Virus record (IMG/VR): IMGVR_UViG_2524614847_000004
Location: 1-64,000 of that record
Reading direction: 5' to 3' (one strand)
Length of the DNA stretch: 64,000 nt
DNA from: a virus
Lineage: Duplodnaviria; Caudoviricetes
Part shown: positions 1 through 58,000 of the stretch, piece after piece
Layout: each line of letters starts with the position of its first letter
How positions within the stretch are numbered: the stretch's first letter is position 1
Translations under genes and position numbers: made by a program
The notes under the pieces: model-generated
Told to the model about the DNA's origin: nothing
The model's database searches: none
What the model saw: only the letters and a program-made list of their open reading frames with translations

Positions 1-287
1 CTAAAAAATATTCACTCTTTAATCCTTTCATTTATCTAATAAAAATCTCATTTTATTCTAAGTTTAGGTTACTCTTTGTTTCTTCCATTACACTCTTCTT
101 GGTTACAATTACAACCCTTACATGGATCTCCTTGGCTTTGAACTAGTAGCCAACAAAGCTGACCATCTAATAAGCAGGTAGGTGGTACATAACCTTGTTT
201 TACGCACATATCTTTAAACATGTCCATTCTGATTCTCCTCCTAATTTTATTCAATTAATCACCATAAAATCTTCGTTTACTTAACTT

Positions 288-671
288 TTACTCATCAATG
301 CCTTTGTCATATAAACATTCCAATATCTGAAATTCATCTGGTACATTTGTAATGTTCATATTTTGCAGTTCAATTAGTTTGATATCATCATACCGTTCCA
401 TATATATTCTCCACCTCTCATCATCGCATAAAATTAATTGATCGAGTTTTAACCCTCTTTGCGAAGATACACTGGTGATGGGAATTACTTTGGTTCCATC
501 ATTAAATATTGCAAATGAACCTAAACTTCCATATTTGTACCTTACAATTTCTCCTACATTATTTCTGCAAAACCATTTAAAGAGATCATTTGTCAACTTT
601 GAATTGTATCCCATAAACCCTATTACCAAATAGCTTGGTTCTGATTCATATCCCATAATACAAGTTGAAAT
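288..671 (-). CDS. hypothetical protein (probable ATT start at 671)
   Basis: ORF 288..656 extends in frame to an ATT 6 nt after GGAGGT; the ATG at 656 has no adjacent RBS. Confidence 0.6.
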   Translation of the reverse strand: MSTCIMGYESEPSYLVIGFMGYNSKLTNDLFKWFCRNNVGEIVRYKYGSLGSFAIFNDGTKVIPITSVSSQRGLKLDQLILCDDERWRIYMERYDDIKLIELQNMNITNVPDEFQILECLYDKGIDE

Positions 672-685
672 ATTGCTACCTCCTC

Positions 686-1689: not shown

Positions 1690-2680
1690 TGATTACTCTC
1701 CCTTCTTTCCTTATTCAAAGCCCATAAAAGAGCCATTAATCACAATTTCTTGGCTATATTTTGTGTGCACGATAGTACATTGCCACTATATATAGTATAG
1801 TTTTCATAAATTTGGGTACAAAAATAACAGTATCTATATCTCAAACTTAAAAATCAAAACATCTACTTCATCATTGCCATCAAATTCTTCGCCTTCATAA
1901 TAATCTTCTATATATGTATAGAAACCGCATGAATTCATTTTTTCAATAAATTCTGGAATGTCTTTCCCTGTCACACTACATTTGGTTACTAATTTTAAAG
2001 ACACGTTGACCTTATACATTAAATATCTCCTTTTCTTTTCATAAAATATCTGTTTTCTAGCAATTAACAATAACGAGACTCTTTTCTAAGTTGTGCAATA
2101 ATGTCTGGATCAATTACAAATTCTACTGGTTTATACATAATATTTCTTATGTCAATATTTTTAATCAAATCATAGTACCCATAATTTTTAGCTTTTACAA
2201 TGAGTATTGGTTTGACTCCATTAGAAAAGTCAGTTTTTATGTTTACAACTTCAAAGTATCTTGTTTTATCTTCAAAAATAATAGATACGATGTTCCCGAT
2301 GTTAATTTGCTCATTAGTGGAAAATTCAATAGTTAGCCCATTTCCTCTTTCATTGCTTTCCAACACATTTTTCAATTCTTTTCATTATTTCTCCTCCATA
2401 AACATATTTGCTACTTCTTGATAGTATTTTGCATCACCTATGTAATGCTCATGAACCATTTCCTCCACTCGATACTGCACCACTTCCAGGCATTCATGAT
2501 CATTAAAGTCGTCAAAATATTCCTCGTTAAAACCTAATAAATCTGAACTCAGGAGCCAGTCGCCACATTCATCTTTTGATAATTCAGCAATGACAGATTC
2601 ACCATATCCATATGGATCAAAATATAATTTCCACACATTAGTCAGCGTAAAATATTCCCACCTCTTGTTCATAGCTCACC

Positions 2681-3472: not shown

Positions 3473-3505
3473 TCAACCTTCCTTTCTTCTCATAAAAGAA
3501 TCATT

Positions 3506-6500
3506 TTATCTTGAAATCTCCAATAGTTTTTCAAATAAGCCCCTGTCTTTCTCAGACATAGAATTAAACTTTTCCAATAATGACAAAACTCTTTCTGCTC
3601 CATAAACATTGAAGCCATCTAATGATTTTTTAATAGAGGTTATAGCATCAGCGGTCTGATAAAGTACCTCTTTTACCTCTTTCGATTTGTTATAAGCCGC
3701 CTCTCGTTTTTCTTCACAGCTATCCCAAATTTGGTACAAAGCATTTGTCTCTTCGATCACTGCTTCCTTATATTTCTTGGCAATATCTTTAGAAAACAAT
3801 TTCAGTTTTAAGACATTTTCCTCTAAGGTTTCCATCATATAGTTTGGTTCTTTTGCCATGACTCAATCATTTTAGGAATATCATCGTTATGTATCTTACA
3901 AATATCGTTTACCAATTCTAATCTTCCAGCCAATTCATCGCTGATATCAATATACTTGTTGTTGTAACTTAAATACGCCATCTTATTTATCCTCCTATAA
4001 TTTAATCAAATGGACATTTAATAGAAATATTCAATCGTATACCATTCTTCATCTTCAGAATTATTTCTTACTAAAATCATATTGCTACAATAGTCTAATA
4101 TTTTATATTCCATACCCTCTGTTAAGCCAAATTCTTCTCCAAATCTTGTTGCTTTTACTGTATTATCTACGGAGTACTTATTCATTCGTTTTCCTCCGTT
4201 TCAATCAATTCTTTCCTCAATTCCTTAACTGCACCACACAATTTATTAATCTTCTCACCGATCTTCCGGTTGTAAATCTCCACGCATTCCTCATATGTCT
4301 CTGCAAAATCTCTTGAATATGTACTTACTCCATTTACTCTAGGAGTACCGTCCTGTTTCAAGACGTAGAAATATTTATTATGTATAATTCCCCTAATTGG
4401 TTCCTGCTTCGAATGTACTACCTTACCACCAAAATGAGATTGTCTATCTAAATCAATATTGAAAGCACATGCCCAGACAATATCTCCTTCTTTTAATTTG
4501 TTTTTATCAATCACTTTCAACTCCCATGTTCAATTTTCTATAAGCTTCTACTGAATTTGCTCCAATCCATAGCAATAATATTAACAGTAAAATTAAAATA
4601 CCAATCACTCTGAGTCCGATAACGATTGACGGTAGTAAATTTACTAGAAATACAATGGCTGCTATAAATGAAATCACCAGTCCAAATTCTAATGTAGTCA
4701 ATAAAATTCCAATCGCCGTTGCCAACAATCCTTTTAAAAATGTCTTAATATGTATCACCTCCACCTAATTTAATCTCAAAATATCTGAATGGTCGTTAGG
4801 ATCAATCGCTAATTCTCCTGATTTAATATAACGCAGCTCTCTATATTCATCGCCATCGATCAAATATAATCCAAATTCTTCCAGATAATCGTTAATAACC
4901 TCATTATCCTCATCTGGTAGTAAAATAGGTTTTACATTACAATGAATAAATTGATTCAAAAGATTATTATTATTTGTTCCAGATGGGACCATATATAGGC
5001 TTGCTTCAATATTCCATGCAGACTGAATTGCTTTTACAATCTCTGATTTCTTTAATGTAAAGAATCCTGAATCGCCCATGTTATTTTCATAGTAAAATCT
5101 CAAACTCGTTGTTCCTCCTTATAAAACAATAATTTAATAGTAACCAATCTCGTCTCCTAGCTTATCTTCATCTCCATCTTTATATTTTTTTACCTTTGAG
5201 CTTATACTATTTACCCTATTTATTTCATTTACTATCTCATTAATTTTATCTATTCTATTATTGATTCTATCTTGATTAATTTCTAACACACATTCCCTGT
5301 AAATCTTGCATTTCAAACCAATACAATATGAGTTGATTGATTCTGAACAATGCATACCAGGCCTTTTATCTGTAAAGCGGCAATAGCTCATTAATAGCGC
5401 CTCCTACTCAACAATTAATTTGTAATGATAACTGAAACTATATTTTGAACTAGAATGGTTTTCCTCTTCATTCTCCATAGGAAATTGCAAATCGGCCTTT
5501 CTGATAAAATCGGTTAGTTTCTTGCCGCCTTTTAACACTGATATAGAATGATTTCCATGATATGTACCGATACTCAATATACTCTCTTTGACTTCTTCGT
5601 CAGAATAACTCTCACAGACGAATACAAAACAATGTCCTTCCTGTACATCTTCCTTTTTCTGATAATAGCCTAAATTCTGTAGCGTTACTTTTCGCTTGCC
5701 AAGATACACATAACAATGTCCATTTGTACATTTATAAATTCCACCAACTTCAAGTTTGGATAATGGAATAGTATTCATAGAGTCTCGTTCCTGCCGTTTA
5801 TTTTCGATCTTCTGAAGAGAATATTCAATTTCTTTTTTTATAGCCAGTTCCTCTTCTTTGACTACAAGAAATACATCTCCCATAGAACGCTTATTACCAC
5901 CTTTAAAAGCAATTGATTTCCCTGACCAAACACCTATATCCATTCCTCTTACATTTCTGCCGGTTCCTTTTCCTACACAAACATCTCCATCATGGAGTTT
6001 TCTTCCTAAAATATCTTCCAAATACTATCTCCTTTTCTAAAAGATTAACTCCTCTAAAACATCAATGGCTTCCTCTGTTACGGTGTGATAGTTTCCATGT
6101 CGAGTTTTAATTGTATAAAAGAAGTGGTCATTAGAATTACTGTTAATTGAGACGATTTCTGCAATTCCATTTTCATCAACTTTTACAGATTCTTTACCAT
6201 CACATGATGCGGCGGATCTGATTTTTCCAAATCTAAAACCAGCTCCAACTTTGTACTTTGGCTCAATTCGTTCCCAGATTATGTATTTATCCCATGCTGA
6301 CAAATCGTTTGGCATACACATAACGTAATCTGCTGGCTGGTAGACTGTTACTATATCCCTACCTTCATGTCCGTAGGTTCCCTTAGCGTATTCTAGGTTT
6401 TCAATATAATTTCCATTTAACTCGCTGTATGTATCAATCGCTTTGTTGTTATAATCTCGAATCCATTTTATGACATCTGCATTGGGCGTATCTCTAAGAA

Positions 6501-7456
6501 CTATTCCATAGCAGCCACTTCTATCTTTAACAAACATTCCTGTTTTTAGATCACTTATTTTCATAAAATTCCTCCTTTTATTTTTCTAATAAAACCACAG
6601 TTTACTCATAACTGTCAGGTTCATCAATCCATCCAACAAGATCGTCTTTTTCATACGCAAAATTATTACCGTTGATATATAAAATCCATTTCTCGTTGCA
6701 TTGACCATAATAACCGCTATAGCAGACTTGCATTTGCTTTAATTTGCATATTACATTTCTATTATTAGTCGGATAATTATGTGGATCGTTCCATTTAAGC
6801 ACACTAGAGTTACTAACTTTAATCTGATATCCTAATGCCTTTTCTATTTCTTCAATAGTCATTTCTTTTGGCGGTAATTCATGCCACGTATCAATATGTA
6901 ACAAATAGGACAACCCTCCCACTGGAGATCCAGTTCCCATAAAATTTTCTGCTTCCCACTCGTATCCATCACCATCATGAAAACCTTTTGATTTTGAATA
7001 TCTCATATTCCCTATACCTTTACCGCAGATATAAATTTTTTCGTTCTCGTCAGCTAGCTTAACCATTTCATATGTATACATTTCTCTTCTCCTCCTCTCT
7101 TTTCAAAATCTCATAAAATGACGTTTTAATTTTCTTTGACCTGGCTTTGCAATTATTACATTTGTAGTATTTGGATTGTTCATCTTTCTCGAAATGTGTT
7201 ACCTGCATAACTGCATTGCTTCCACATGATGTACAAATCATCAGTCATCCTCCTTTCGACGATAAAATCGGTTCATGATCTCGGTATGCAAATAATCAAA
7301 CTCATCTCTTGCCGCGCCGTTCTTAAAGTCAAATTCCTTATACTTTTCGTGAATATCCACCATCTTGGATTGATGTTTAAGGAGTGACAATTCCAACCGC
7401 AACTCTTTTTCTGTCGCCCATAAAATATGTAAATAAACCAACAATTCTTTTAACAT
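3506..7456 (-). other. array of about 10 small hypothetical phage genes
   Basis: Consecutive minus-strand ORFs (3506-3859, 4182-4520, 4507-4764 membrane protein, 4765-5103, 5134-5391, 5404-6021, 6037-6564, 6602-7081, 7241-7456), most with GGAG(G) RBS. Confidence 0.75.
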
Positions 7457-7672: not shown

Positions 7673-9622
7673 TTATTCTAACATAGATTTAAACTGAGCT
7701 TCTGTAATTATAGGTATTCCCAATTCTTTCGCCTTCTTGTTTTTACCTGACATACTTAAACTATCATTATTAATGAGAAAACTTGTTTTTGCACTCACAG
7801 ATCCAGATACCTTTCCACTGTATCGTTCGATTTCTGCCGTGAGTTCATTTCTATTTGAATAATGCTCAAGGCTGCCAGTGATTACGAATATATTCCCGGT
7901 TAAGTCAACCATATTACCCAAATTTGATTCCATACTATGCTTTTCGAAATCCAATAGCATAGGAATGCAAGCATCTTCAGAGTCTCGGTATCTTCCGTAC
8001 CAATTACAGATGCTCTTATTCATTGTGCTTCCAAAATCGTCTAACTGAGAAAAATCAAACTTACTTTCCAATGCATCAATAAACTTAGAGTAATCTCCAT
8101 AAAACTGCTTACTGATAGACTTACTAGTTGTCTTTCCGATCAATGGAATAGACAATCCATATAAAAACCTTTCAAGTGTAGTATTCTTTGATTTTTCAAT
8201 TGCTGCTAACAACTTATCTGCTGATTTCTTGCCAAAACCGTCTAATTTGACCATTTTTTCTTTATGGGAATCTAATGTGTAAATATCTGATAGTTGATTT
8301 AGCCAACCTAATTTCATGAACTTTTCTATCGTGGCTTCAGATAACCCGTCAATATTCAATGCATTTTTACTAGAATAATGTGTAAGTCTACCAAGTAACT
8401 TTCCTTTACAGCCAGGGTTGGTGCAGGTAAGCACTTCTGTATTATTATCTTTGACTATAACAGTCATACCTCCACACACTGGACATGTATCAGGAATTTC
8501 AAAGTCTGTTTTATCGGCATCGCATTCGATGATCTGTGGAATAATCTCGTTTTTCTTAACTACCGTTACATTAGCACCAACCTTGATATTCAAATCCTTC
8601 ATTATGCTAATATTATGTAGGGATGCACGACTGACTGTAGTACCAGCAAGTTCTACTGGATCGAATATAGCAACCGGAGTTAAATTGCCAGTTTTCCCCA
8701 TTGACCACTCAATATCTCTCAATATAGAAGTTTCCTGGTCTTCTTGAAATTTAAATGCGATCTGACCTCTAAGGTGATGTGATGTTGCTCCAAGTGATTC
8801 CATATAATCAGTATCGGTGAACGACACCACGCAGCCATCAATTGGGTAATCATGTATTTCAGCGGTAATTCTCATATTCTGTAACTGGCTTAAAATATCT
8901 TCGCCCATCAATCTCAATGGAACAACATCAAAACCATAGTCATCTAACTCATTCAGTCTGACTAAGAAATTATTACTATTGCTTCCTTCGACCAATCTCC
9001 AGGCAACAAATTTCACTTTCCTATCAGCGCATACCTTACTGCCTAACTGACGCACAGTACCACTACATAAATTACGCGGGTTCTTATATTTCTTATCATC
9101 AGGTAGTTCGTTATTAATCTCGTGGAAAGTATTATAATCAATAATCGCTTCTCCAAATAGTACAAGCTTATTTTTGTATGGTATTGTAAGTGGAATGTTG
9201 CAGAATGTTTTTGCATTTTCAGTAATATCCTCGCCGATCATACCATCTCCGCGAGATTCTGCCTTAATCAACACTCCATTATCGTAAGTAAGGCATACAG
9301 TCAACCCATCAAGTTTAAGCATAAGAACAGCGTCTCTTTCCCCGATAAATTTCAACAACTCATCTGGTGATTTTGTTTTGCCCAGGGATAACATCGGGTA
9401 CTCATGAACACTCTTCTGTAGCTTGCTCTGCACCAAATATCCTACCGATTGCGTCGGTGAATTTGCCAAGCAAAAACCTGTTTTATCTTCTTTTTCTTTC
9501 AACTCATCAAACAGCATGTCATACTCCTGGTCACTGATTTCAGAGTTGTTTTTGTTGTAGTATTGATTTCTATGGTGATTCAGGATCTTTGTCAGCTTCT
9601 TGATCCTTTCGATATCTGTCAT
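7673..9622 (-). CDS. ligA: NAD-dependent DNA ligase
   Basis: KLDG adenylation motif, SRGDG, NPRN, CPVC...C zinc finger, HhH repeats, C-terminal BRCT (FVITG...SVS). Confidence 0.95.
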   Translation of the reverse strand: MTDIERIKKLTKILNHHRNQYYNKNNSEISDQEYDMLFDELKEKEDKTGFCLANSPTQSVGYLVQSKLQKSVHEYPMLSLGKTKSPDELLKFIGERDAVLMLKLDGLTVCLTYDNGVLIKAESRGDGMIGEDITENAKTFCNIPLTIPYKNKLVLFGEAIIDYNTFHEINNELPDDKKYKNPRNLCSGTVRQLGSKVCADRKVKFVAWRLVEGSNSNNFLVRLNELDDYGFDVVPLRLMGEDILSQLQNMRITAEIHDYPIDGCVVSFTDTDYMESLGATSHHLRGQIAFKFQEDQETSILRDIEWSMGKTGNLTPVAIFDPVELAGTTVSRASLHNISIMKDLNIKVGANVTVVKKNEIIPQIIECDADKTDFEIPDTCPVCGGMTVIVKDNNTEVLTCTNPGCKGKLLGRLTHYSSKNALNIDGLSEATIEKFMKLGWLNQLSDIYTLDSHKEKMVKLDGFGKKSADKLLAAIEKSKNTTLERFLYGLSIPLIGKTTSKSISKQFYGDYSKFIDALESKFDFSQLDDFGSTMNKSICNWYGRYRDSEDACIPMLLDFEKHSMESNLGNMVDLTGNIFVITGSLEHYSNRNELTAEIERYSGKVSGSVSAKTSFLINNDSLSMSGKNKKAKELGIPIITEAQFKSMLE

Positions 9623-9633
9623 TCAGTTCCTCC

Positions 9634-10164
9634 TTATTTTAATATTTGACTCATTAATGCACTGTAGCATATCTCATATATCATATATCCCATATTTTCT
9701 TTTTTAACAAAATTGAGATAGAAATTAGATACCTTTTGCACTCCGATTAATCTTCTCATAAAGGCTGATTCGTTATATTCTGACCGATAGTTATGCTCAA
9801 TGATATCGTCTATATGATTATCCTCGATCAGAACATAACTGTTGTTAATGTTAATCATACGATTCAGTTCTTTGAAAAATCTTTCATCATGCTCTTTGAT
9901 GTTTCCTGCCAACTCATCAATGGAATTCTTTCTCTCAATACATAGTTCATCTGTGAAGTATGTATCTTTTGCAAACCCCAATTCTGGACACGCTTCAATC
10001 ATGAAGGAATAGTCTCCAGTCTTTAATGCTCTTGACTTGTGCTTAATGTTCTTCTTGTCAAAATAATCCAGAATGTGTTGATTCTTTTGCTCATTTGATG
10101 TATGTAATACTACAAGGTGAGAAACGAGTTCTTTTAATTGCTTCTCTGTATAATAATATTTAAT
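9634..10164 (-). CDS. ERCC4-domain nuclease (probable ATT start)
   Basis: The extension reads KYYYTEKQLKELVSHLVVLHTSNEQKN...LKTGDYS, followed by the IERKNSIDEL motif (GDxnERK); RBS AGGTG. Confidence 0.8.
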   Translation of the reverse strand: MKYYYTEKQLKELVSHLVVLHTSNEQKNQHILDYFDKKNIKHKSRALKTGDYSFMIEACPELGFAKDTYFTDELCIERKNSIDELAGNIKEHDERFFKELNRMININNSYVLIEDNHIDDIIEHNYRSEYNESAFMRRLIGVQKVSNFYLNFVKKENMGYMIYEICYSALMSQILK

Positions 10165-10172
10165 ATTTTCAC

Positions 10173-16008: not shown

Positions 16009-16022
16009 ATATTATCACTCTA

Positions 16023-46033: not shown

Positions 46034-46147
46034 TCAGTCGTCGTTGTCATTCTTGCAGGCCCCATTTAATGGGTATCCACAATGTATACAAGCATCGGCC
46101 TTATTACTTACTTCTTTTCCACATTCAGGACAATTAATTAATGCCAT
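46034..46147 (-). CDS. 37-aa zinc-ribbon peptide, probably truncated
   Basis: MALINCPECGKEVSNKADACIHCGYPL. Confidence 0.6.
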   Translation of the reverse strand: MALINCPECGKEVSNKADACIHCGYPLNGACKNDNDD

Positions 46148-46171
46148 AACAATATCCACCCTTTCTTTTAG

Positions 46172-46837: not shown

Positions 46838-47202
46838 ACTTTTACCTCACTTTATATTTTCTTACTTTTTACTACTTCTTGCCATTTTAGTATATCATCC
46901 TTCTTTATAATTACAATATCCTAAGTAGTAAGAAGGAGCTAAAAGTATGACAGAGAAACCTTATAAAGTAAAAGTAAACGTATCTTTAGATGAAAACGTG
47001 ATTGCAAATCTCTTTTCTTTTGATATCAAGTTCTATTCTTTTGTTGCTATTTCTAGTTTTAAGATACTAATCGTTTAAAACTTCTGTTCTTTCTTTTAAA
47101 ATATCTATAGTTTTATTAATTCCTTTAATCATCTCCTTATCAAATGAAAGCACACTTTGATTGCAACAAAAAAGGAACCTCTGTATTATTCGGTTCCTTT
47201 TA

Positions 47203-47682
47203 TTACACCTTATTCTTTTTATACCACACTAAAAATTCACCAAATGTTGCTTCCTCTGCTTCCTTTCTTGCTTTAATAGCGTCTTCAATTTCTTGATAAC
47301 TTCCCAAATGATACCGAATTCCCATAAAATAAATATATGCAATCCATCTATCACTTTTCCCTTTTTGCTTGTGAAGGCTTACTCCACGATGACCCGATGT
47401 ATTATTCCTCTGTATTTTATTAGAACTTATTTTAGATATATTTGTATTATTTATCTGCCCTAACTTTTCTTGTATGGTTTTGGTTCTAAGGTTTTTTATT
47501 TTCATGCACCCGCAACTTACACATGAACCATATGTTACGGTATTTACTCTCCTGATAACCTTTTTACCGCATAGAAGACACTCAAACTCCCATAAATAAG
47601 ATCCATTGGACTTCTGTCCGGTACACCTAAGTGCTTTTAAATTCCCAAATACTATGTCAGCTATGTCTTTTTTCTTAGCCAT
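47203..47682 (-). CDS. AP2-domain protein (homing endonuclease-derived)
   Basis: WEFECLLCG, SCGC, NNTSGHRGV, WIAYI, HLG...EDAIKARKEAE. Confidence 0.85.
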   Translation of the reverse strand: MAKKKDIADIVFGNLKALRCTGQKSNGSYLWEFECLLCGKKVIRRVNTVTYGSCVSCGCMKIKNLRTKTIQEKLGQINNTNISKISSNKIQRNNTSGHRGVSLHKQKGKSDRWIAYIYFMGIRYHLGSYQEIEDAIKARKEAEEATFGEFLVWYKKNKV

Positions 47683-49604
47683 ATTACATCACTGGATTCT
47701 TCTGAGCAGGTTGCCAGCTTTCTTCTCCATACAGTTTTGCATGTCTCTTCACATATTCATCAAAAAATTCCTGATCGGTACATGGGGCCAAGTCGAAATG
47801 AATTTTTTCTCTTATATCATCATCCATCATTGTCACTGCTACATCAAAATCAATTTCTACTCCGTACTGATTAATAACGTCCCTCATAATTTACCTCCCA
47901 ATTTTTATCATTACTATTATTATACTGCCCATATGATATATTTTCAATTTCTATCTACACATTTCAAGAAAATCATTAGTACTCATGGCGCCCTCCCACC
48001 AACAAGCAACCGCTGGCCTATCTTCTGAACTATTTAAATAGTCCTCTAGCTGTTTTCTAAAGTAGTTAAGCATATCACCATCAAATGCAGCCTTCAGTTT
48101 ATCAAAGTCCTTGCACTGTTCTAATTCTCCATACCCCATAGAAACACCTCCTTATTAAATCTACCGCTAACTATGTGCGGTTAGTGACCTAAGCCAGATC
48201 AACCACTAATTCTCCGTGATAAGCAGCAATCACTTTCAGACTGCCGGGAATGCCTTGTTTACCTTTGACAGTAACGGCCTATCCTTCCGGATCACCGACA
48301 AGGCTATGTATTAAGATATAATGCAATGCAAGGCGAAAATTTCCGTGAAATTATCAAATGTAGATATGTATACACCATTTGCATACATTTCAATTTTCCC
48401 TTCCCTGTTCTTCATGTAATGAAATTTTATATTGTCATTCATGTTTTAATCCTCCGGTCTGTGTAAATAAAGCTGCGCTTACAATTATCAATAAAGCTGT
48501 TAATGTCCAGTTTCCGTCCTGGTCTGGTAGCATAAAGAGTACAAAAAAAGAAAGCAATAATAAAATGCTTCCTACGATTCGGTTCCATATTATGAAATTT
48601 CGTCTTTGTTTTCGCCTTTCAATGCGTCGATAGCTATATGAGCAGCTATAATCTTTTGTTGTATCGCTTACCAAATTCATTATAATTTCCTCCCCTTTTA
48701 TGTTCTCCTCTGCAAGTCAAACGAGAAATAACATACCCTATTAACGCTCCTATAGAAACACTTCCTATTAAAAAATAAAACGATTCCATACGTCCTCCTT
48801 AACTATAAAATGTGCTTTTCATTCTGGCATTGCATATAATATTTCATCTCTTACCATATAATAGCGGAAATTCGCCATCTCTTCTGTGAGTTCACCGTTT
48901 TCGACCATTTCATCACATTCTTTTTGTAATTCTTCACATGCCTTTTTATATCTTTCTCCAAAATCGCTCATATTTACACCTCCGTTGAAACCTGTCTTTT
49001 ATTTTACTTTTTCAACAATAGCTTTTTTCCCTTCAATTTTTACTACATATTCTCCATGTTCATAAAACGAAACAGTTAATGGAAATTGAAAATCATTATA
49101 TCCTCCGCTAAAAGAACAAGAAGCAAATCTAAAGTTTCCCTTTCCCCCTCCCATTACTATATCTTCAGTTACTACTCTTACTTTTTTTTCTTTAACCACA
49201 ATCGTTGCCTCCTTCTTATTTCAATTAATAAAATCTATTTTTTATTCTGATATTTCATACCATTGAATTTCTGATCTGTTGTTCATTTTGTCAAATATAT
49301 CAGTTACATTGTTTTTCAATAAATTATACTGGTGTTCCATCTCTACCAAATTTGCTTGATAATATGCTTCTAGTCTTGTCTGGAATATACCTTCATAGTT
49401 GTACGGCCTCAATTGCGAAATTGTTTCTTCCGCCGTATGGTTGTTCAACCAATAATCAGATATGACAGCTTTTGATAAAAAATATTTACCTCCAAATTTA
49501 TTAGTCATTGCTTCATCTAATTCATAAATTGCAAAATTAAACACCTCTTCAATTAATCTCATATTGTCTTTCTCCTTTTTATGTTTTCTGCATCAAATTA
49601 CAAT

Positions 49605-50624
49605 TCAATTATCTTTTATATCATACATTAATTCGCACCATTTTATGGCAGTAAATGTGATTTCTGGGTTATTTGAGAACCACTTATTATTTATCATATA
49701 TGGTAAGAATCTTTTTTTAATGCAATACAAATTATCTTTGCTTAAATCTGTAGTATTGCCGTTTAAAAAGGTTATTTGGCAATCATCTTGCACTTTCTTA
49801 TTATGATATTCTTGCCATTTTATTCTGGAAAGTGGTTCAAAAATTTCACTCGACTTTTGCTTATTTCCTAGTTTATAATTTGATTTATTTATTTTGACAT
49901 ATATTCTACCACTCATATTTATTTTATGCCCAATAGGTCTGCGTCTAGCATTAAATTTATGAGGATCGTCTTTTTTAAGTTTTAGCTTTCTAAAACAATA
50001 AGTTTCTATTGCCGCCACTGTACAGTCTTTTTTGAAAAGTTCATTGAATTTTTTCGTCATCTCATCATATGTATAATTATTAAAATTATCGCTGATCCAA
50101 TCAACCTCTATTTCCGAAAACGGAACATATCTTTTCAACTTTAATACATTTTGGCAATGCAAAGAAAAACTATGCAATGATCTTTTCCTATCAAATACAT
50201 TATTAAATTCGCTTAGAAGGCCTTCAAAAGTGTCAAACATATAGTAATTTGTTATTATCCATTCGTCTTCTTGCGGTAACCATAACTTCATATGAATTCC
50301 ATTTTTTGATAAAAACCCAAGAATGACAGACATATTTCGTTTAGAAAAAATTTTGTTGTGTTCCTCAACAAAGTCATTAATTTTATATTTTCTACAATTA
50401 TCAATTAGCCATTCAATTTCTTTTTCTGTAAATCGGTTTTGATTATCCATTTTTAATTTTAAATCTTTATTAATTTTCGTCATGATCGCAGCTTTGCTTC
50501 TTTGATTAGAAAAGCGTAAATTATAGTCAGATACCAATCCATCTAAACTATCGTACGTTTTGTCTATTACACTTTTCTTTATCCATTCGGTTTCTTCTTC
50601 TGTATACTTTGTTCCCTTTGGCAT
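49605..50624 (-). CDS. HNH endonuclease-like protein with four N-terminal Myb/HTH-like repeats
   Basis: YTEEETEWI / FTEKEIEWL / WLPQEDEWI / FSEIEVDWI repeats; C-terminal PIG...YVKI...FLNGNTTDLSKDNL. Confidence 0.7.
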   Translation of the reverse strand: MPKGTKYTEEETEWIKKSVIDKTYDSLDGLVSDYNLRFSNQRSKAAIMTKINKDLKLKMDNQNRFTEKEIEWLIDNCRKYKINDFVEEHNKIFSKRNMSVILGFLSKNGIHMKLWLPQEDEWIITNYYMFDTFEGLLSEFNNVFDRKRSLHSFSLHCQNVLKLKRYVPFSEIEVDWISDNFNNYTYDEMTKKFNELFKKDCTVAAIETYCFRKLKLKKDDPHKFNARRRPIGHKINMSGRIYVKINKSNYKLGNKQKSSEIFEPLSRIKWQEYHNKKVQDDCQITFLNGNTTDLSKDNLYCIKKRFLPYMINNKWFSNNPEITFTAIKWCELMYDIKDN

Positions 50625-50848
50625 TATTTAATCAACCCCTTTATACTTGATGCTTTGTCTAATTTTCCTTCCGTAATTAGTTTTTCTGATCTCAAAACAA
50701 CATCGGCGTTGTTGATCATCTGTTTTGCAAGAGAAGCTATTGTTTGAGATGTTTCATTTTCAACCCTCTTGTCTTCCACGCTTAGTTCTTTACTGTTTGC
50801 AATTTCAATTCTCTCACCTAAAACTTTTTGTAATTCAACTAATGTCAT
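50624..50848 (-). CDS. small protein translationally coupled to the HNH gene
   Basis: TAATG stop/start overlap; ASLAKQMINNA. Confidence 0.65.
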   Translation of the reverse strand: MTLVELQKVLGERIEIANSKELSVEDKRVENETSQTIASLAKQMINNADVVLRSEKLITEGKLDKASSIKGLIK

Positions 50849-52534
50849 AATGCTACCTCCTTATTTTTTTATACATGAAAATTACATTTGATTCATTCCA
50901 CAAACCTTTAAATTCAATACCTGTAAAGACTCCACATATTCATCAATACTATTCTGTGAAGCCGTGTCAGTTACAAGCTCCTTTGCCTTCGCAGCATTCA
51001 CGATAAGGCTTATTAAACCATTACTGATAATTTCCAGTTCTTTATTTGAAAACTTATCCATTACAATCTCCTTCCTGATTTTGAGCAAAATAAAAGCAAC
51101 CGGTTATATTCCGATAGCTCACATCAAACGTGCATTTTATTAGTTACTTATGTCACACCAATATCCATCAAATATAGCAGTTGCGGAATAAAATTTACCT
51201 TTTGTAAGTTGTATTTTTATACCTCTACTTTCCATAACTCTATATAATTTATCCAATGAAGACTTTTCTTTAACATTTACAAATATTCTGTCTTTCAAAA
51301 CGCCATTATGAATTAATGTGATACTTGGCGCTTCTTTTTCTAATTCTTCAATAACTTCAATCATATTAATATCCATAAATCATTCCTCCTTAATCTACAA
51401 TTGAAAGACATCATTCATCGTACACTTAACGGTATACAGAAGTGATCACAACGCATATTGCCTACTTTGTGTTGTTTATCTTCGTCATAATAAACCATAG
51501 CATATTCATCGCCATCGTAATCTATATATTTTGATGTTTCATCCAACCAATAATAACTTCCGACTTCAAGTTGTCCGGGCATTGCTTCTCTTTCTGAAAT
51601 ACATCTTACTGTTTTCATATTCTCTCCATTCCGTACCAAAGAAAGGTACATTTTATCTGTTATTAGTTAAATGTTGAAACCTCAAACTCTTCTTTAGCTA
51701 ATACAAAAGTGAACGTTACTTCTCCGTCGGAATTTTGAAGACTTACGGTTGAATCATTTTCTTCAATTATCAGACAAGTTTCACCGTCCATACACACAAG
51801 TTCGCCCGTGACCTTATCTCTCAAATCATAATAATGATTGCCGTTTTCTTCTTGATAAGTATGATCTATATAGTTGTGTGTTAAAACTTCTCCATACTTC
51901 TCAAATAATGATTTTATACTGATACATTTTTCTTTCAATTTGTTTTCCTCCATTTATACGTTAAAATTGCGTTTTCAACTGAAATTCGCCCTTTATTCAC
52001 ATGTTATATAATAGAAACCAGTACATTCATTGACTTCCCCGTTTCTTTCATCATCTACGGGGTCAAAGTAACCAGTTGTAGCAACGTCTGTCACTCCTAT
52101 ACTTTCTAAAAAATCTGCTATTACATTTGCAATGGTTTCTGTTTCGCACATGATATCATCTCCATTTGTCCATATCCCAGGATTATCATCACATGGTTTA
52201 GGCTCCTTGGGTAAGCTTTCTAATATCTGCTCATATGTGATCATTGTTTCTTCCTCCATTCTTCTAATGAAACTTACTTTTCATCTGCCTAATTACCATG
52301 TAACACGATCAGGAATGAATATCAATTCAGTGTCTTCATATTTTTTCATATACTTCATGTTTGTATCTGGTTCGCCATCAAATGAATTATTTACACTTGT
52401 ACACAAATCAGGCTCTCTATTCTTTCATGGGTCAACATCTTTCCATAATGTTCCATGTTCATCTTCATATACCGGTCTATCCCAACTATCCATGCCTCTA
52501 TAGATCAATTTAACTTTCATAGTTTTACCTCCTG

Positions 52535-55015
52535 CTACGCTGTTTTTATATTTTCTTGTTCACTCTTTTCAATTACTATAATCTTACTTGCTACTCCTGT
52601 CATTTCAAACGTACCACTTTTTAAATCTTCTGTGAAATATGTTTCATTTTCTAACCATTGTCTAAACTCAATTGATTTTTTATCATTGGCAAAAGTCCAA
52701 TGTGGTGAAGAAATAGAAACAAGCGTACCACCATCTTTTAATAAATCATAAGCGTGTTTAATATGATTCTGTTCATCACTAAAAGGCGGGTTCATGATAA
52801 TGGCATCATAAATAGGTTCGCTCTGATACTGTAGAAAATCATCACCGACAAGATTATAGTCTTTAAGTAAAAGCAATTCTCGAAAAGTTGACATCTGCTC
52901 CACAACATCAATATCATTTGTAATTTTTCGCATTTCATCAGCGATGGCAGCAATTCCGGCAGAAGGCTCAAGCACTTTAGCCCCCTCTGTAATTCTTGCT
53001 AATTCAACAAGTCTTTGTGCAACCTCTGAAGGTGTGAAATTAATATCCCCTTTCTGCATCATCTTACATTCACGTTCAAGTCGTTTTATTTTCAGTGCTG
53101 TTTGATCTTGTGGTTTATTTACCATTTCAATAATTACTTTGTATTCCTCAATGGTTTTAACTAATTCTTGTGTATTTGAGATATTAGCCTTTTGAAGACG
53201 TTTCTGCGTTTTGGGTACTTCTTCATTCCACCACGAATTGGGATAATTCGGGTCTTTTTCTGGATATTCTACCGGTCTAGCAGAGGAAGGACGTTTTCCC
53301 TCTGGTAAATTCCACGTTTCAAACCGTTTATAGTAACTATGAATTGAATCACGGAATGATTCTGTTAATAGAGCAGCTTCAAGCGAAGTTAGTTCACGTT
53401 TCTGTGCTGTATCAAGAAGACAAGAAAGTATATTTAAGTCTAGCCTATAACCTTCTATTTTCGCCTCACGCCCCTCTTGTTCCCTCATACGCTTATAGGT
53501 ATTTGTTTTATAATCCCCCGACAATTTATCAATTTTGCTTTGTGTACTGCTAATTGCTTTGTTAATACGTTCTATAATTTTTGTTCTATCCTGCTGTTTT
53601 GGCCGTGCCGTTTGGTTATCCTGTGTGGATTCCTCTGTTGTTGTATCATTTCCTCTGTTTAACACTTCTGTAGGATCATATCTAAATATAAATCCATGCT
53701 TAAATTTAGAGTAGTAGGCATCGATTTTTTTCATTTCGACACGTAAAGCAGAAAAGTCTTCCACTTTTTCTCTAACTTTTACAACCCACATTTTAGAATC
53801 GTCTCTTGTGTCGGTGTCTTCTGCGATATCATAGGTATAGGCAGCTGAAACAGATACTTTCTGTTTATCTGCTTCTGAGGTAGTAGTTTCGGATTCTTTT
53901 CCCTTTGTCTCCGCTTTGCTATTTCCGATGGACTTTTTAACCACCTTTTCCACTTCATATGGTGTTTTTACTTCCTTAAGTTCACACCATGAAATAGCTC
54001 CCGTTTCAATCCACTTTAAGAACCTCTCTCCAAAGGTCCCCCATCTGTTGTTACTTGAGGCAATTCCGGTACACTCTTTTGTAAGTTTTCCATTGAGTTT
54101 ATAAGCATAAAAATAAGATCCGTTTTCCGTTTTGCTTTCATGAATGCGGTAAACAAGACCTTTATAACAATTGTGGTTATATCTAGTTTTAAGGATAAAA
54201 CACTGACCCTCTTTAATTTCTCCTGCCTCCACTTCTACGGCCTTTGTTTCGTTCTTATATTCTGTAACGATAACTTTCTCATAAATAGTACCGTCACCTT
54301 CTCCAAGAAGTCCACCGCAAGTGGTATCTATTTTATTGATAAACTTGTCAAAATCTGATTTTAATTTTAAAGTTTCTTCCTGTTCTTCCATCTGGTATTT
54401 GACTGATTTTTCTAATTCCACATCATTAAACCAACTACAACCGCTATTTGTTCTTCTTATCTGTTCTCTAATTTCATCCTCTGTTCTTTTCTTGTAGTTC
54501 TCCTTATAATAGATACCAGAATATTTTAAAATTCCGTTGCCTTTTGCAATGATGATTCCGTCTTTTTCTATGTGCCAGTTGCATTTATTGGGGTGGGCCT
54601 GATGCCCTGGGACCATTCCGACAACGACGTATTTCTCTTTGTTTTCTGTTGCTGCCTCTGCTTTCTTCTGCAATCGCTCAATCATCATTTTGGCGCTTTC
54701 CGCTTCTGATTCAGATGCTCCACGCTCTACGGTCATTGCTTCCAGCTTCTTAATTTTGTCTGTAATGCTTCTATCATAAGAAAAATCTGTATGATTATAT
54801 TTTCTAATTTCTTGCGGCTCCCTTGCTCCGCAAACGTCAACACAAAGAACATATCCGTTCTTTTCTGCAACACCGTCCCAAGTGGCAGGGCAATAATAAT
54901 CCGTCATGCTGTCGGACTCGTCTGGTGAATAGCCATATACTTTCCAACCATCAAGAGCCATTAACCTATGGGCTATCATCACTTTAACTTCCCTATAATC
55001 ATAATAATTTGACAT
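52535..55015 (-). CDS. large multidomain protein with C-terminal N6-adenine methyltransferase-like domain
   Basis: FTP, VLEPSAG (motif I), MNPPF (motif IV); DUF2786-like segment IKKLEAM..RGASESEAESA. Confidence 0.8.
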   Translation of the reverse strand: MSNYYDYREVKVMIAHRLMALDGWKVYGYSPDESDSMTDYYCPATWDGVAEKNGYVLCVDVCGAREPQEIRKYNHTDFSYDRSITDKIKKLEAMTVERGASESEAESAKMMIERLQKKAEAATENKEKYVVVGMVPGHQAHPNKCNWHIEKDGIIIAKGNGILKYSGIYYKENYKKRTEDEIREQIRRTNSGCSWFNDVELEKSVKYQMEEQEETLKLKSDFDKFINKIDTTCGGLLGEGDGTIYEKVIVTEYKNETKAVEVEAGEIKEGQCFILKTRYNHNCYKGLVYRIHESKTENGSYFYAYKLNGKLTKECTGIASSNNRWGTFGERFLKWIETGAISWCELKEVKTPYEVEKVVKKSIGNSKAETKGKESETTTSEADKQKVSVSAAYTYDIAEDTDTRDDSKMWVVKVREKVEDFSALRVEMKKIDAYYSKFKHGFIFRYDPTEVLNRGNDTTTEESTQDNQTARPKQQDRTKIIERINKAISSTQSKIDKLSGDYKTNTYKRMREQEGREAKIEGYRLDLNILSCLLDTAQKRELTSLEAALLTESFRDSIHSYYKRFETWNLPEGKRPSSARPVEYPEKDPNYPNSWWNEEVPKTQKRLQKANISNTQELVKTIEEYKVIIEMVNKPQDQTALKIKRLERECKMMQKGDINFTPSEVAQRLVELARITEGAKVLEPSAGIAAIADEMRKITNDIDVVEQMSTFRELLLLKDYNLVGDDFLQYQSEPIYDAIIMNPPFSDEQNHIKHAYDLLKDGGTLVSISSPHWTFANDKKSIEFRQWLENETYFTEDLKSGTFEMTGVASKIIVIEKSEQENIKTA

Positions 55016-55027
55016 TGTAATTACCTC

Positions 55028-58000
55028 CTAGTACCCATAATATAATTCAATTATTTTTTCCTTTTTTAGTTGTTCTATTTCTATATCATTTATATCTATA
55101 TTAGAGTATGACTGTTTTAAAGTTTCTTTGGCTTCAATTTCAACATCCGCAAATATAATGCCCACAACTATTTCTCCACAGTTTCTAAAGTAATATTTAT
55201 ACATACAATAACCTCCATTGTTTTTCATTTATTCCCACTATAAAAGCCACCGGAACATTGCCCAATGGCTTCAAACTGAAAATAAATATACTACATTGTT
55301 TCTCTTTGCTCTTCCGTATTAATTGCTAATGCTTCGTAATAATCTTCCTTGCAAATTTCATCACTTGTATTTGTTGGAGATATCCACTTGTCACAGCTTT
55401 TAAAATATTCGGAATATTGACAAAAATATTTTTCTGAGGTTTTAAAATACTCCCATCTTCTCCCGTTTTTCTTATCATATAAGAAAAAACTATTTTTATG
55501 TGTATGATAACCCATTTTATTACCCCCTTAAAAGTACTATTTATTTATCATAATTATTGATCCAGTCTTCCGCTGCTTCTACTGTATCAAATTCCATATC
55601 AGAGTCAGAAGGACTGCACATATAGGCATATTCCATATTATCAGGGTGTAAAACTGTTATGTTGAATCTATATTCTTCTAATTCCTTATTATTGTTCTGG
55701 TAAATTCCCCAACCTTTAAGCTTCTTAACTCTCTTCATTCTGTTTTACCTCTCAACCAAAGAATAGTTTTATTGTATTACGGTTCTTGAATCTCATTAGT
55801 AAAATTCTCTAACAGTATCTCCAATCGTAATATCTTAGCTTCTGTTTTTTTAAGTTTTTTTAAGGCAGTTTGAAAAGAAATGTCTGTTTGACATTCTGAT
55901 AAATCAATTATTATTTTTATCAAATCTTCTTTTCTGTCCTTTTCTGCTTCAATATCATCTGTTATTAGATTATAAATGTCTACATATAAATCCTTTGTCA
56001 TTTTGATTTACCCCCACTCATAAAATAAGAATTTCAAAGCAATCCCTTTTCAATCGCTTGTTCTGGCCTTCCTCCCTCAATATATGGAAGCAAGTGTCTT
56101 TTATCTTTACGATAGTTTCCTGCACCATCATATATAAGTGCGGATTGTTCGCTTGAAAGTTTCATAGCCTTGTTGTGGTATTTCGTACAATAAGGCTCTG
56201 TATTATTGCAAGCAGTAGTTAAACGCTGATATTTACGTATTTCAATTTCAAGTTCAATAATTCGTTTATCCTCTTCTGAAAGTTTCATGTATTTTCCCTC
56301 CATTTCTCAATGCTGCGGACTTGTGACCGCTTGACTTGTGTCAAGTGCATTAAAGCAGCCCTTATAGGCTGCTCCACTCTGCTTATACTACTTCAAGGTA
56401 TAAATCTTCAATATCGTAGTTTACTAACTCGTCTTTAAAATCTTTTCGCCAAGTGTTACAATTTTTCTCAAACCTTTTTTTATTGCAATCCCAAATTGAT
56501 GTAATAATGTCACCATTTTTATGCCTTATTTGTGCTTGATACTTATTATTTTTCACTGCCTTTCCCTCCATGAAATTCGGTTTTTATTTACCACACCTTT
56601 TCATATTTAACGGAACATACACGGTCAATTAAGTCATCAATTTTTATCTGTATTGGCTTTTCCAATTCTTTTAATTCTTCATAAGATATATCACAAATAT
56701 CATAAAGTGCATCTCGTTTATCCTGTAAAGCTCTTAATTCAGATTCTAGTTCTTGTAATATCTTTGAATTTTTATTGTTTAAAGTTCTTTCTCTGTAATG
56801 ATCTCTTCTTGTATAACCGATACTTCCATATAAGGACATCTTAATTTCTCCTATCAAATAATTGTTTCATTTAATAAATGTTTTAAAAATAAGAATTTCT
56901 ATCTTTTACTAATTCTTGTATTATTTCTTTCATTTCGCTGATATTATCAGCAACTCTTGACCTTGAAAATCCGTCTTTCCACTTCATTACAATACAAATA
57001 TGTTTATCTTCCCTATACAAATCACTAATAAGATGTTGATATTTTTTAGGAACATAATTGATTAAATTTTTCATTATATCACTCCCTTAATAAATTTGAA
57101 TATTCTATTTCACTTCTATAAAATGTTTAGTTATGCCTCTACCACTTCTAAAATATATTTTCCGTTATCGGCTTTATGCACATTAAATTTCTTAACACAC
57201 TGAAACTTTAATGGAATTTCTGAAACTGAAAAGGAATATAAGAACGACATATTATCATTGTAAAATTCCACTGTTTCAATTTCTTCTCCGTACATAAGCA
57301 TATCAATCAATTTTTCTAAGTTAATCTTATTTGTTTTCATCTTCAGTCCTCCCAATGAAATGGATATTCTATGCCACTTCTATATCATTGATGTACGTCA
57401 ACGTATTTGTTCTCCAGTGACCAGCTTCTATATACTCTGCCTGAATGTTTTCCGCGTAGCCGTACATATTCAAATTATGCACCGATATTCTTAAGCCTGA
57501 TAATTCCATAATGCAATACTTTGTTTTGCCTGTATCCTTGTTTAATACTTTGTAAGGGATAAAGTCCAGATAGACAAAGTACTTTTTCCCTTCCGTACTT
57601 GACATAGCATCACATACCGCAAAGCCGTCTATAATTCCGGTTTGTTTCATTGCCTGATCGTGAATTGATTCCACGATATCCGTCGGAATTTTGCTTTTAA
57701 GTAATGAAAAATCGTATAAATACTTTTTATTGTTGGTAAATTCCTTCTTGTTTTCCTTCAGATCTGGAAATGACTTTTTCATTTTCGCCATGCTCGGCAG
57801 ACAGTTCAATGTATTGTATTTGTTCATTTTAAAATCTCCCTTTCAAAAGTTTAAAATCGTACCGCCTAGATGAATTTTCTGTACTCCGGTATGTCCTGTT
57901 TCTACATTCTCAAAAACTAAAGTTTCCGATTCGATTTTAATATTTGGTGACATGATGTTTAATATCTCTCTGCACCTTTTTGCTGATAATGTAGGCATGT

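Follow-up and report, generated by a model that had tools for sequence, protein, structure and literature searches.

What are the short inverted repeats that stand between the small accessory genes of the virus record IMGVR_UViG_2524614847_000004, and do they mark the points at which related phages exchange those genes? We analyzed the first 64 kb (the window) of this 135,533-bp provirus record (G000), where an 18-bp palindromic site with two conserved 6-bp arms and a variable 6-bp center recurs at gene junctions. A preliminary description of the same DNA had likened the arrangement to an integron-like array of gene cassettes. The sites are real; they are elements of duplex DNA located at gene junctions, each is addressed by its own center, their order is collinear between genomes, and they are enriched at mosaic breakpoints. 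In genome alignments, gene replacements and insertions or deletions (indels) between related phages start and stop at these sites. We infer that they are position-matched crossover points at which accessory genes could be swapped in register, with the gene order undisturbed.

Strict sites are enriched, have a fixed spacing, and lie between stop and start codons

The site pattern, WTVAAA-N6-TTTBAW, spans 18 bp (two 6-bp arms and a 6-bp center, the centers being quoted in gene orientation). The window contains 24 strict matches, compared with a mean of 2.61 (sd 1.69, largest value 8) in 100 dinucleotide-preserving shuffles, none of which (0/100) reached 24. The excess is specific to N6: the same arms at other spacings within N0–N14 gave only 0–5 matches each, and the everted arrangement of the arms gave 0–7. 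When one mismatch was allowed, 88 matches were obtained at N6 vs. 40–66 at the other spacings in N2–N11, an excess that places the true number of sites near 40. The preliminary description had reported palindromes at about 40 accessory-gene junctions, and both the number and the junctional location withstand this analysis. Among its 38 coordinates, 21 are strict sites and 16 have one mismatch, whereas the entry at 31117 has two, and the strict sites at 26919, 51961, and 57829 were missing from it. The whole record holds 35 strict sites (24 in 1–64000, 5 in 64001–129000, and 6 from 129001 to the end), with dense zones at 1–58 kb and 129–134 kb and chance levels in the late region.

Gene context was assessed for 23 strict sites, leaving out the one at 39, which is too close to the edge of the window. 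On the gene strand the order is stop codon, site, 0–28 nt, Shine-Dalgarno sequence, and start codon. A Shine-Dalgarno word together with the minus-strand start, no more than 60 nt downstream, of an open reading frame (ORF; 40 aa or longer) was found at 20/23 strict sites, compared with 16.5% of random positions. The stop codon of an upstream ORF lay within −30 to +12 in 21/23 cases, and in 9 of these 21 it coincided with motif positions 2–4. These values agree with the earlier placement of the sites between the upstream stop and the next ribosome-binding site. When the set was widened to the 87 sites that have no more than one mismatch, such a start was present in 45 and both start and stop in 36. 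The sites fall in the transcribed spacer, 9–28 nt upstream of start codons. As also noted earlier, they are absent from the replication operon (7673–20530), where the best matches at its 8 junctions carry 2–4 mismatches.

Promoter-like matches in 38000–57990 numbered 119 vs. 95.3 ± 9.2 expected, from which it follows that most of the small genes have no strong individual promoter; as had been proposed, the genes set apart by the sites are small and mostly promoterless. At many addressed sites of the related provirus G001 (e.g., 60117, 87551, 101671, 103348, and 106909) and at window position 30316 the left arm reads AGCAAA in place of ATAAAA. AGCAAA is a second accepted arm form outside the stated consensus.

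Related proviruses share centers in the same order next to unrelated genes

Four related provirus records (G001–G004) were retrieved through a recombinase and an 826-aa ORF of the window, both described below; all five records are incomplete. Strict N6 sites numbered 19, 23, 10, and 3 in G001–G004, respectively, compared with 3, 3, 0, and 2 for a reversed-pattern control. Identical 6-nt centers occur in the same genome order across the records, and the adjoining genes are often unrelated. Flanks of 50 nt were called homologous when they scored above the 99th percentile of random 50-mers. By this measure, the same-center pairs among the five records comprised 50 with both flanks homologous, 23 with the left only, 32 with the right only, and 122 with neither; the same classes held 34, 4, 0, and 24 pairs in the N7 control and 37, 0, 1, and 34 in the N8 control. 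Of the 122 neither-flank pairs at N6, 91 lay within 3 kb of the local synteny diagonal, vs. 2/24 at N7 and 1/34 at N8. The N5 control gave 18/55 syntenic neither-flank pairs, in our opinion because A- or T-rich edges allow real sites to match N5 as well when one mismatch is permitted.

Eighty center words are shared syntenically; 38 of them have at least one pair in which both flanks are unrelated, and 29 are represented by ordinary orthologous pairs only. Within the window, 44 sites have a same-center syntenic partner, and for 32 of these a partner has at least one unrelated flank. The sequences lying between the same two centers (slots) were compared in 119 pairs, of which 39 were homologous at the DNA level, 33 partly so, 3 similar at the protein level only (blastp, 1e-3), and 44 without similarity. 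Slot lengths often differ (e.g., 288 vs. 833 nt), and the 44 dissimilar slots differ in length. In pairs with both flanks unrelated, the ungapped identity drops to ∼30–40%, the background level, immediately beyond the 18 bp. We found no case of one gene lying between different pairs of centers, save for indels that end at the left arm; genes keep their slot.

The centers themselves are not unusually constrained, because at orthologous junctions (both flanks homologous) their identity is similar to that of the flanks, namely 92.5% vs. 88–89% in the G000 family and 95.7% vs. 97–98% in the family of phage SPbeta. Identical centers beside unrelated genes therefore indicate a recently shared site whose flanks were replaced at its edges. 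In-register pairs with one homologous flank point in the same direction. The center was identical in 12/17 left-only pairs and 10/17 right-only pairs of the G000 family and in 12/13 of each class in the SPbeta family, the rest of the right-only pairs differing by a single base. With both families pooled, the center was identical or 1 nt off in 25/30 left-only and 30/30 right-only pairs. The unrelated centers in the other 5/30 left-only pairs correspond to indels that join the left flank to a site further downstream, and this asymmetry (5/30 vs. 0/30) is suggestive, though only that, of the center staying with the downstream gene in indels. The arms tend to go with the homologous flank: right-only pairs had an identical right arm in 19/32 cases and an identical left arm in 10/32, and in left-only pairs the left and right arms were identical in 15 and 12 of 22, respectively. 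Exchange would then occur within the site and between sites of the same center. The tolerance of non-identical overlaps by Tn916-type integrases, invoked in the preliminary description, runs contrary to these data, in which exchange partners nearly always share their center.

Sites of the window are listed below, with the center given in capital letters; a partner is a same-center syntenic site in G001–G004, and the flank state is given for each relative.
39–56, minus strand: strict; TGAGAT; no same-center partner in the four relatives
2041–2058, minus strand: one mismatch; CAGATA; both flanks unrelated in G001 and G002, right flank homologous in G003
3492–3509, minus strand: strict; TGATTC; stop codon at positions 2–4; both flanks unrelated in G002, right flank homologous in G003
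4005–4022, minus strand: one mismatch, listed previously; no partner found
5121–5138, minus strand: one mismatch; TTATTG; right flank homologous in G001
7113–7130, minus strand: one mismatch; ACGTCA; both flanks homologous in G001
21630–21647, minus strand: one mismatch; TTGTGA; left flank homologous in G003
21991–22008, minus strand: one mismatch; GTGTAG; right flank homologous in G001–G003
23664–23681, minus strand: one mismatch; CAGTAC; both flanks unrelated in G001 and G002
24621–24638, minus strand: strict; GATATA; no partner
25291–25308, minus strand: strict; GAACAG; stop codon at positions 2–4; both flanks unrelated in G002, left flank homologous in G003
26246–26263, minus strand: one mismatch; TCAACA; left flank homologous in G002
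26919–26936, minus strand: strict, not listed previously; CAAACC; in G001 the same left flank leads to the CAGTAC site, an indel ending at the left arm
27176–27193, minus strand: strict; TAATAC; both flanks unrelated in G002
27451–27468, minus strand: one mismatch; GTAACG; center repeated at 124508 of the record
28852–28869, minus strand: strict; TGACGA; center repeated at 125573 of the record; both flanks unrelated in G001
29112–29129, minus strand: strict; GAATGA; right flank homologous in G002, center differing by 1 nt
29728–29745, minus strand: one mismatch; TTAAAG
30316–30333, minus strand: one mismatch (left arm AGCAAA); CTCCGC; center repeated at 126822 of the record
31117–31134, minus strand: two mismatches, listed previously; weak
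32402–32419, minus strand: one mismatch; TCATTA; both flanks unrelated in G003
33620–33637, minus strand: strict; TGAACC; no partner
38591–38608, minus strand: one mismatch; TCTAAG; both flanks unrelated in G001 and G002
38978–38995, minus strand: one mismatch; TTTGAG; metagenome contig end at 38981
39405–39422, minus strand: strict; TAATAG; contig joints from two runs at 39419
39624–39641, minus strand: strict; TGATTA; both flanks unrelated in G001–G003
40650–40667, minus strand: strict; GGATTG; stop codon at positions 2–4
41378–41395, minus strand: one mismatch, directly downstream of the recombinase gene; GACATG; both flanks homologous in G003
45900–45917, minus strand: one mismatch; TCAGGA; center repeated at record position 131834; contigs of three runs break at 45913, 45917, and 45920
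47144–47161, minus strand: strict; GTGTGC
48805–48822, minus strand: strict; AGCACA; TGA stop codon at positions 2–4
48985–49002, minus strand: strict; GACAGG
49228–49245, minus strand: strict; AATAGA; both flanks unrelated in G001–G003
50875–50892, minus strand: strict; TGTAAT; no partner
51123–51140, minus strand: strict; TGCACG; contig breakpoints at 51122 and 51146
51401–51418, minus strand: one mismatch; GATGTC
51639–51656, minus strand: one mismatch, listed previously; no partner
51961–51978, minus strand: strict, not listed previously; ACGCAA
52267–52284, minus strand: strict, downstream of the 826-aa ORF; AGTAAG, kept in G001–G003; contig joints at 52253 and 52285
55755–55772, minus strand: one mismatch; CTATTC; contig joints at 55747 and 55773
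56020–56037, minus strand: strict; TTCTTA
56570–56587, minus strand: strict; ACCGAA; contig joint at 56566
56853–56870, minus strand: strict; CAATTA; contig joint at 56873
57355–57372, minus strand: one mismatch; TATCCA; TAG stop codon at positions 2–4; contig breakpoints at 57346 and 57372
57829–57846, minus strand: strict, possibly by chance, not listed previously; center GGGAGA is the ribosome-binding site of the next gene

SPbeta, phi3T, and metagenome contigs have breakpoints at the same sites

The site family also occurs in named phages. SPbeta has 37 strict N6 sites vs. 1–10 at the other spacings of N2–N12 (6 at N7), with the consensus ATAAAA-N6-TTTTAA/T at gene junctions, and phi3T has 36 vs. 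5. CP011970 (phiCDIF1296T), a 131-kb plasmid-like phage of Clostridioides difficile, has 33 at N6, 8 at N7, and 9 in the reversed control, with arms that are mostly TTAAAA/TTTTAA; this excess extends the family beyond Bacillus-type hosts. No N6 excess was seen in phage Sundance (4 vs. 5) or KLEB27-3 (6 vs. 15). Comparison of SPbeta 68–110 kb with phi3T, Goe11, and SPbetaL2 yielded 69 same-center pairs with both flanks homologous, 13 with the left only, 16 with the right only, and 26 with neither, 21 of the last being syntenic; the N8 control in the same comparison gave 53, 0, 0, and 3. Homology among these four phages stops inside the site or at its edge. At one junction, for instance, SPbeta and phi3T agree base for base into the start of the right arm and are unrelated beyond it. 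The ends of blastn blocks fell within 15 nt of a site in 49/137 cases in the SPbeta family (7.8 expected) and in 69/398 cases in the G000 family (21.7 expected).

At one SPbetaL2 locus (L034, 29139–30302), the place after a yoqX-like gene that yoqY takes in SPbeta is occupied by a gene annotated as the anti-defense gene Gad1. The two phages share the left flank as far as the ATAAAA arm, after which the centers differ, and the Gad1 side is a two-mismatch site only.

Assembled contigs from four metagenome runs of four studies were also mapped on 38000–57900, the uncovered parts being uninformative. The matches listed comprise 15 of 21 joints and 24 of 111 loose ends and provide 46 distinct breakpoints. 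Among these matches listed, 16/46 breakpoints were no more than 10 nt away from a strict or one-mismatch site, compared with 3.06 expected and a maximum of 11 in 5000 random draws; for strict sites only, the matches listed gave 6 breakpoints vs. 1.34 expected. One contig of 21,950 nt matches the window at several places only as islands of 27–33 nt, each holding a site, and the islands are consistent with 52253–52285, 55747–55773, and 57346–57372.

The site has the properties of a duplex DNA element

The degenerate positions of the arms are symmetric, position 1 mirroring 18 and position 3 mirroring 16. The arms do not covary: positions 3 and 16 form Watson-Crick pairs in 25/83 distinct strict sites, compared with 30 expected if the positions were independent. 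Together, symmetric degeneracy and lack of covariation are characteristic of duplex DNA contacted by a two-fold symmetric protein rather than of a hairpin. The mean fold energy of the sites is −0.43 kcal/mol; with no covariation and almost no folding energy, an RNA hairpin or cruciform was rejected as a candidate. Apart from the purine-rich ribosome-binding site the flanks are uninformative, so that only 6 bp per arm is conserved, although SPbeta sites show a weak additional preference at +3 to +5. No conserved hexamers were found in register with the site. Identity with the PeSL elements of T4-type phages was likewise rejected, as there are neither register promoter hexamers nor a hairpin. 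The layout of the site, with its N6-specific excess and inverted, symmetric arms, matches that of Xer-type core sites. This bears out the earlier reading of the inverted half-sites around a 6-bp center as the layout of a tyrosine-recombinase core site. In the XerCD/dif system, as given in the available text of PMC2965235, the binding sites flank a 6-bp central region and strands are exchanged at its edges.

A terminator-like hairpin at 45928–45956 on the minus strand (11 pairs followed by a T run) stops 10 nt short of the TCAGGA site at 45900–45917, on its upstream side. Some SPbeta sites abut SPBRE operators, at 76170 upstream of aimR and at 99497 upstream of yorE. From these neighbors it follows that the sites bound promoter and terminator modules besides genes.

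The array contains two candidate tyrosine recombinases

Two proteins of the tyrosine-recombinase family are encoded in the window.
41392–42474, minus strand: Xer-like tyrosine recombinase, 360 aa, inside the array (Pfam Phage_integrase, 6.6e-36); candidate enzyme
37236–38210, minus strand: short tyrosine-recombinase-family protein, 324 aa (Pfam, 4.7e-16); second candidate

The preliminary description regarded both as intact, and their alignments retain the catalytic residues. Aligned with XerD (1a0p) and XerA (5hxy), the 360-aa protein has R, K, H-x-x-R, H, and Y all in place. Its best NCBIfam hits are XerS, XerA, XerC, and XerD, every one below the equivalog cut-off, and the protein is therefore Xer-like and not an orthologue. 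The arms may resemble difSL, the XerS site. Against the integron-integrase model TIGR02249 the 360-aa protein scored 72.2 bits vs. a cut-off of 265, and against PRK15417 it scored 43 bits vs. 435. Homologues of 80–94% identity occupy the same place in G001–G003, so that each of the four records covering the region (G000–G003) has the recombinase within its array. A site (TCAGGA) is directly upstream of the recombinase gene in G001 and G002, and a site is directly downstream of it in G000 and G003.

The residues R, H-x-x-R, H, and Y of the 324-aa protein align with those of the 360-aa protein. At the Pfam threshold it was detected in G000 only of the five records; a search for related loci found no relative, and a sequence search against solved structures gave no match. 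An MrpR-like label for this protein is unsupported by its sequence, given the retained catalytic residues and the missing structure match; MrpR/SroF proteins are described, in the accessible part of their literature, as lacking catalytic residues. No serine recombinase was found in the five (incomplete) records. According to the available text of PMC8612738, integration of SPbeta is carried out by SprA, and YopP is described only as carrying a XerC-superfamily integrase domain.

Gene content of the window and a second array in the record

The minus strand carries nearly all genes of 1–59 kb. The replication block encodes an NAD-dependent ligase, DNA polymerase III alpha, a DHH/RecJ-like protein, a primase-like protein, and a DnaB-like helicase, and outside it the window consists of long runs of small ORFs; this layout resembles that of SPbeta. 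Judged by the polymerase, the closest named phage is Brevibacillus phage Sundance (46% amino-acid identity), and megablast of 36000–44000 against named phages returned zero matches.

Three further ORFs of the window were noted.
36621–37124, minus strand: MazF-like ORF (PHROG 1936 at 2e-15), overlapping the start of the 328-aa ORF
35690–36676, minus strand: 328-aa ORF, for which no Pfam, NCBIfam, or PHROG match was found
52535–55015, minus strand: 826-aa ORF, similar over its C-terminal 240 residues to PHROGs of giant proteins, some of which carry the label DNA methyltransferase

Metagenome contigs break within the 826-aa ORF at 53775, 53839, and 54294, which suggests that it is a domain mosaic. 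Identity with the YonO RNA polymerase is unsupported, as the ORF has no Pfam hit and, among PHROGs, matches the C-terminal portions of giant proteins.

Beyond the window, G000 has a second, shorter array on the same strand at 124000–135533, with five centers in the same order as in window 27000–46000; it ends at a partial integrase (122458–122874). This array looks like the tail of a related tandem prophage or a duplicated arm. The duplicated centers are located at the following positions (second array, then window).
TCAGGA: 131834 and 45900
CTCCGC: 126822 and 30316
TGACGA: 125573 and 28852
GAGAGG: 125039 and 28203
GTAACG: 124508 and 27451

Discussion

The best explanation, which we hold tentatively, is that the sites are position-matched crossover points used in Xer-type, tyrosine-recombinase site-specific recombination with a 6-bp overlap. 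When relatives co-resident or co-infecting in one cell meet, the sites would serve as in-register crossover points. Two recombinase monomers would occupy the two arms, strands would be exchanged at the edges of the 6-bp center, and a requirement for matching centers would limit exchange to sites of the same "address," much as in heterospecific lox/FRT systems. Such a requirement would explain both the retention of the centers and the conserved order. The enzyme may be the Xer-like recombinase encoded at 41392–42474 within the array, the host Xer enzyme being the alternative. More tentatively still, the sites may constitute natural recombinase-mediated cassette exchange across the SPbeta-like phages, including SPbeta and phi3T: ∼40 core sites with shared arms and overlaps of their own, served by a Xer-type enzyme (a YopP-like phage protein or that of the host), would allow accessory and anti-defense genes to be swapped slot by slot.

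Several results weigh against site-specific recombination at these sites. The conserved arm of only 6 bp is short for a recombinase, those of Xer/dif-type core sites being about 11 bp. The five centers that occur twice in G000 do so in direct orientation, 86–97 kb apart (27–46 kb vs. 124–132 kb), and a freely active enzyme would recombine such duplicates. There is no signal of selection for well-separated centers within a genome, the centers being no more distinct than expected by chance: identical within-genome pairs numbered 0 vs. 0.1–0.5 expected, and pairs with at most one mismatch numbered 8, 7, 7, and 1 vs. 6.8, 5.7, 8.5, and 2.1 expected, respectively. Block ends are located away from sites in 83% of cases in the G000 family and 64% in the SPbeta family, and the other 30/46 breakpoints among the metagenome matches listed fall elsewhere, many at other gene starts. 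The documented replacement that converted phi3T into phi3Ts has an N6 site at neither edge; the edges of the "s" fragment (L035/L036, ∼101.4–102.7 kb) are the polymerase stop codon and the yorP ribosome-binding site, from which it follows that clean replacements at gene boundaries occur without sites too. In the available text of a preprint, laboratory hybrids of phi3Ts and SPbeta join at homology regions in 15/16 recombination sites (bioRxiv 10.1101/2020.05.06.055103). Sundance has a tyrosine recombinase without an excess of sites, so that in this small sample of five named phages the presence of a recombinase does not track that of the sites. Lastly, the 360-aa recombinase is only distantly related to the phi3T YopP homologue (25% identity), and SPbeta yopP went undetected by a single-protein search at an E value of 0.001.

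A strong and only somewhat less probable alternative is that the arms are occupied by a different dimeric DNA-binding protein of the phage or the host (e.g., a regulator, roadblock, or architectural protein). General recombination, or illegitimate recombination facilitated by homology, would then exploit the 18-bp allelic identity, making the crossover a side effect comparable with that proposed for PeSL in T4-type phages (PMC2839356, available text). A dispersed binding site for a phage DNA-binding protein had been offered as the alternative in the preliminary description, and such a site is compatible with its also being a crossover point. Dyad symmetry without covariation of the arms suits any dimeric DNA-binding protein, and a position just upstream of ribosome-binding sites, overlapping stop codons, is that of an element tied to expression. 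Breakpoints at junctions without sites, the reported origin of laboratory hybrids mostly in homology regions (in the accessible part of that preprint), the annealing and exonuclease proteins of SPbeta-like phages (as annotated in NC_001884), and the PeSL precedent all agree with this alternative. If the center does stay with the downstream gene in indels (5/30 vs. 0/30), the site may functionally belong to the gene that follows it. However, 18 bp, of which 12 are common to all sites, is very short for homology-dependent exchange, yet exchange is nearly always between same centers and the order is kept. It would also have to be coincidence that the spacing is strictly 6 bp, that the arms are inverted, and that the array encodes a Xer-like enzyme. 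Nor does this alternative name a candidate binding protein, the known dispersed operator of SPbeta, SPBRE (MrpR/SroF), having a different sequence.

It is improbable that the sites are purely regulatory or structural elements under positional selection, with no role in recombination and with gene turnover that happens to stop at gene boundaries. The fixed position between stop codon and ribosome-binding site would suit such elements. Phage mosaic boundaries generally coincide with gene boundaries, and such breakpoints occur in the metagenome contigs here also. Against this proposal, the centers are no more constrained than the flanks at orthologous junctions, so conservation fails to explain identical centers next to unrelated genes. 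Identity ends exactly at 18 bp, the same-center pairs with unrelated flanks are syntenic far above the controls, and one metagenome contig matches the window at several places only in site-holding islands of 27–33 nt.

Still less probable is an element acting at the RNA level, i.e., an mRNA hairpin or protein site governing translation or processing of the downstream gene. The sites do lie within the transcribed spacer, 9–28 nt upstream of start codons, but they show no covariation and almost no folding energy, their symmetric degenerate positions point to duplex DNA, and an RNA element gives no reason for position-specific centers kept across phages. A true integron, with cassettes taken up and released by an IntI-like integrase at attC-like sites that fold as single strands, is highly improbable despite the small promoterless genes of one orientation, each bounded by an imperfect palindrome, and the tyrosine recombinase: the integron-integrase model scores 72 bits vs. 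the cut-off of 265, the sites are only 18 bp with positions 3/16 paired in 25/83 cases vs. 30 expected and a mean fold energy of −0.43 kcal/mol, and slot order and centers are fixed between genomes, unlike integron arrays with entry at attI. The integron-like label of the preliminary description therefore does not extend to membership in that class.

The usual account of phage mosaicism is that illegitimate or homologous exchanges are rare and their products are then selected. In the present case the places of exchange are marked by a defined 18-bp site, and the pairing of sites by a private 6-bp center. If site-specific recombination at these sites is the correct explanation, the trading of accessory genes would be built in and ordered, and the conserved recombinase YopP would gain its first candidate function. 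The slots hold small early genes, anti-defense genes among them, as exemplified by the Gad1 gene annotated in such a region of SPbetaL2. The idea is directly testable with existing genetics, since the Bacillus subtilis phages SPbeta and phi3T carry these sites as well, and phage engineering could use the addressed sites as natural landing pads. No description of this site family was found in the available portions of the literature searched, which included SPbeta overviews and did not cover the 1999 SPbeta genome paper.

Comparison with known systems

Like an integron, the window presents an array of small, mostly promoterless genes with imperfect palindromes between them and a tyrosine recombinase. 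Unlike an integron, it has no attC-like folded sites and no IntI-type integrase, and its order and addresses are fixed; the collinear order of centers between genomes argues against entry at a single site of the attI type. The stoperators of cluster A mycobacteriophages (L5) are asymmetric, oriented, near-identical 13-mers without private centers. They are similar to the present sites in that tens of short sites lie in short intergenic gaps across a prophage; those sites bind the repressor. In cassette exchange by Cre or FLP, heterospecific lox or FRT sites share their arms and differ in their centers, and only sites of the same center recombine; these are laboratory constructs with 13-bp arms and 8-bp centers. 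A segment between two different lox or FRT sites is thereby exchangeable in register, as would be the case here. The present array differs in being natural and in having ∼40 addresses, and its need for matching centers is deduced from comparisons only.

The SPBRE/SroF box, the operator of the SPbeta integrase-fold repressor MrpR (also named YopR or SroF), as described in the available text of PMC10516654 and bioRxiv 10.1101/2025.11.27.690993, is also a repeated intergenic element of SPbeta-like phages, with a reader of the tyrosine-recombinase fold. According to the same excerpts it differs in sequence, lies at promoters in about ten copies, and is asymmetric, with 24 bp read by a monomer; SroF reads its 24–26-bp box in this way. 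Identity of the sites with the SPBRE/MrpR operator was rejected, since the element common upstream of ten MrpR ChAP-seq genes in SPbeta is different and asymmetric. The PeSL elements of T4-type phages, in the portion of PMC2839356 available, are short conserved intergenic elements of variable regions that edge insertions, deletions, and replacements, as the present sites do. As described there, PeSL combines a promoter with a terminator stem-loop and acts through homology recombination, whereas the present element has no register promoter and no hairpin, spans 18 bp, and has a position-specific center.

The pdif/dif modules of Acinetobacter plasmids, as far as the accessible text of PMC6449649 describes them, are alike in that accessory genes are bounded by short Xer-type sites with inverted arms and a 6-bp center. 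Their sites, too, lie in accessory regions of a mobile replicon, and the plasmid modules occur in different backbones (PMC6449649, same text). The present system differs in its phage replicon, in the ∼40 sites of one co-oriented array, in the conservation of 6 bp per arm, and in the phage-borne candidate Xer-like gene. With private centers in a kept order, exchange here appears to be allelic rather than the hopping of modules.

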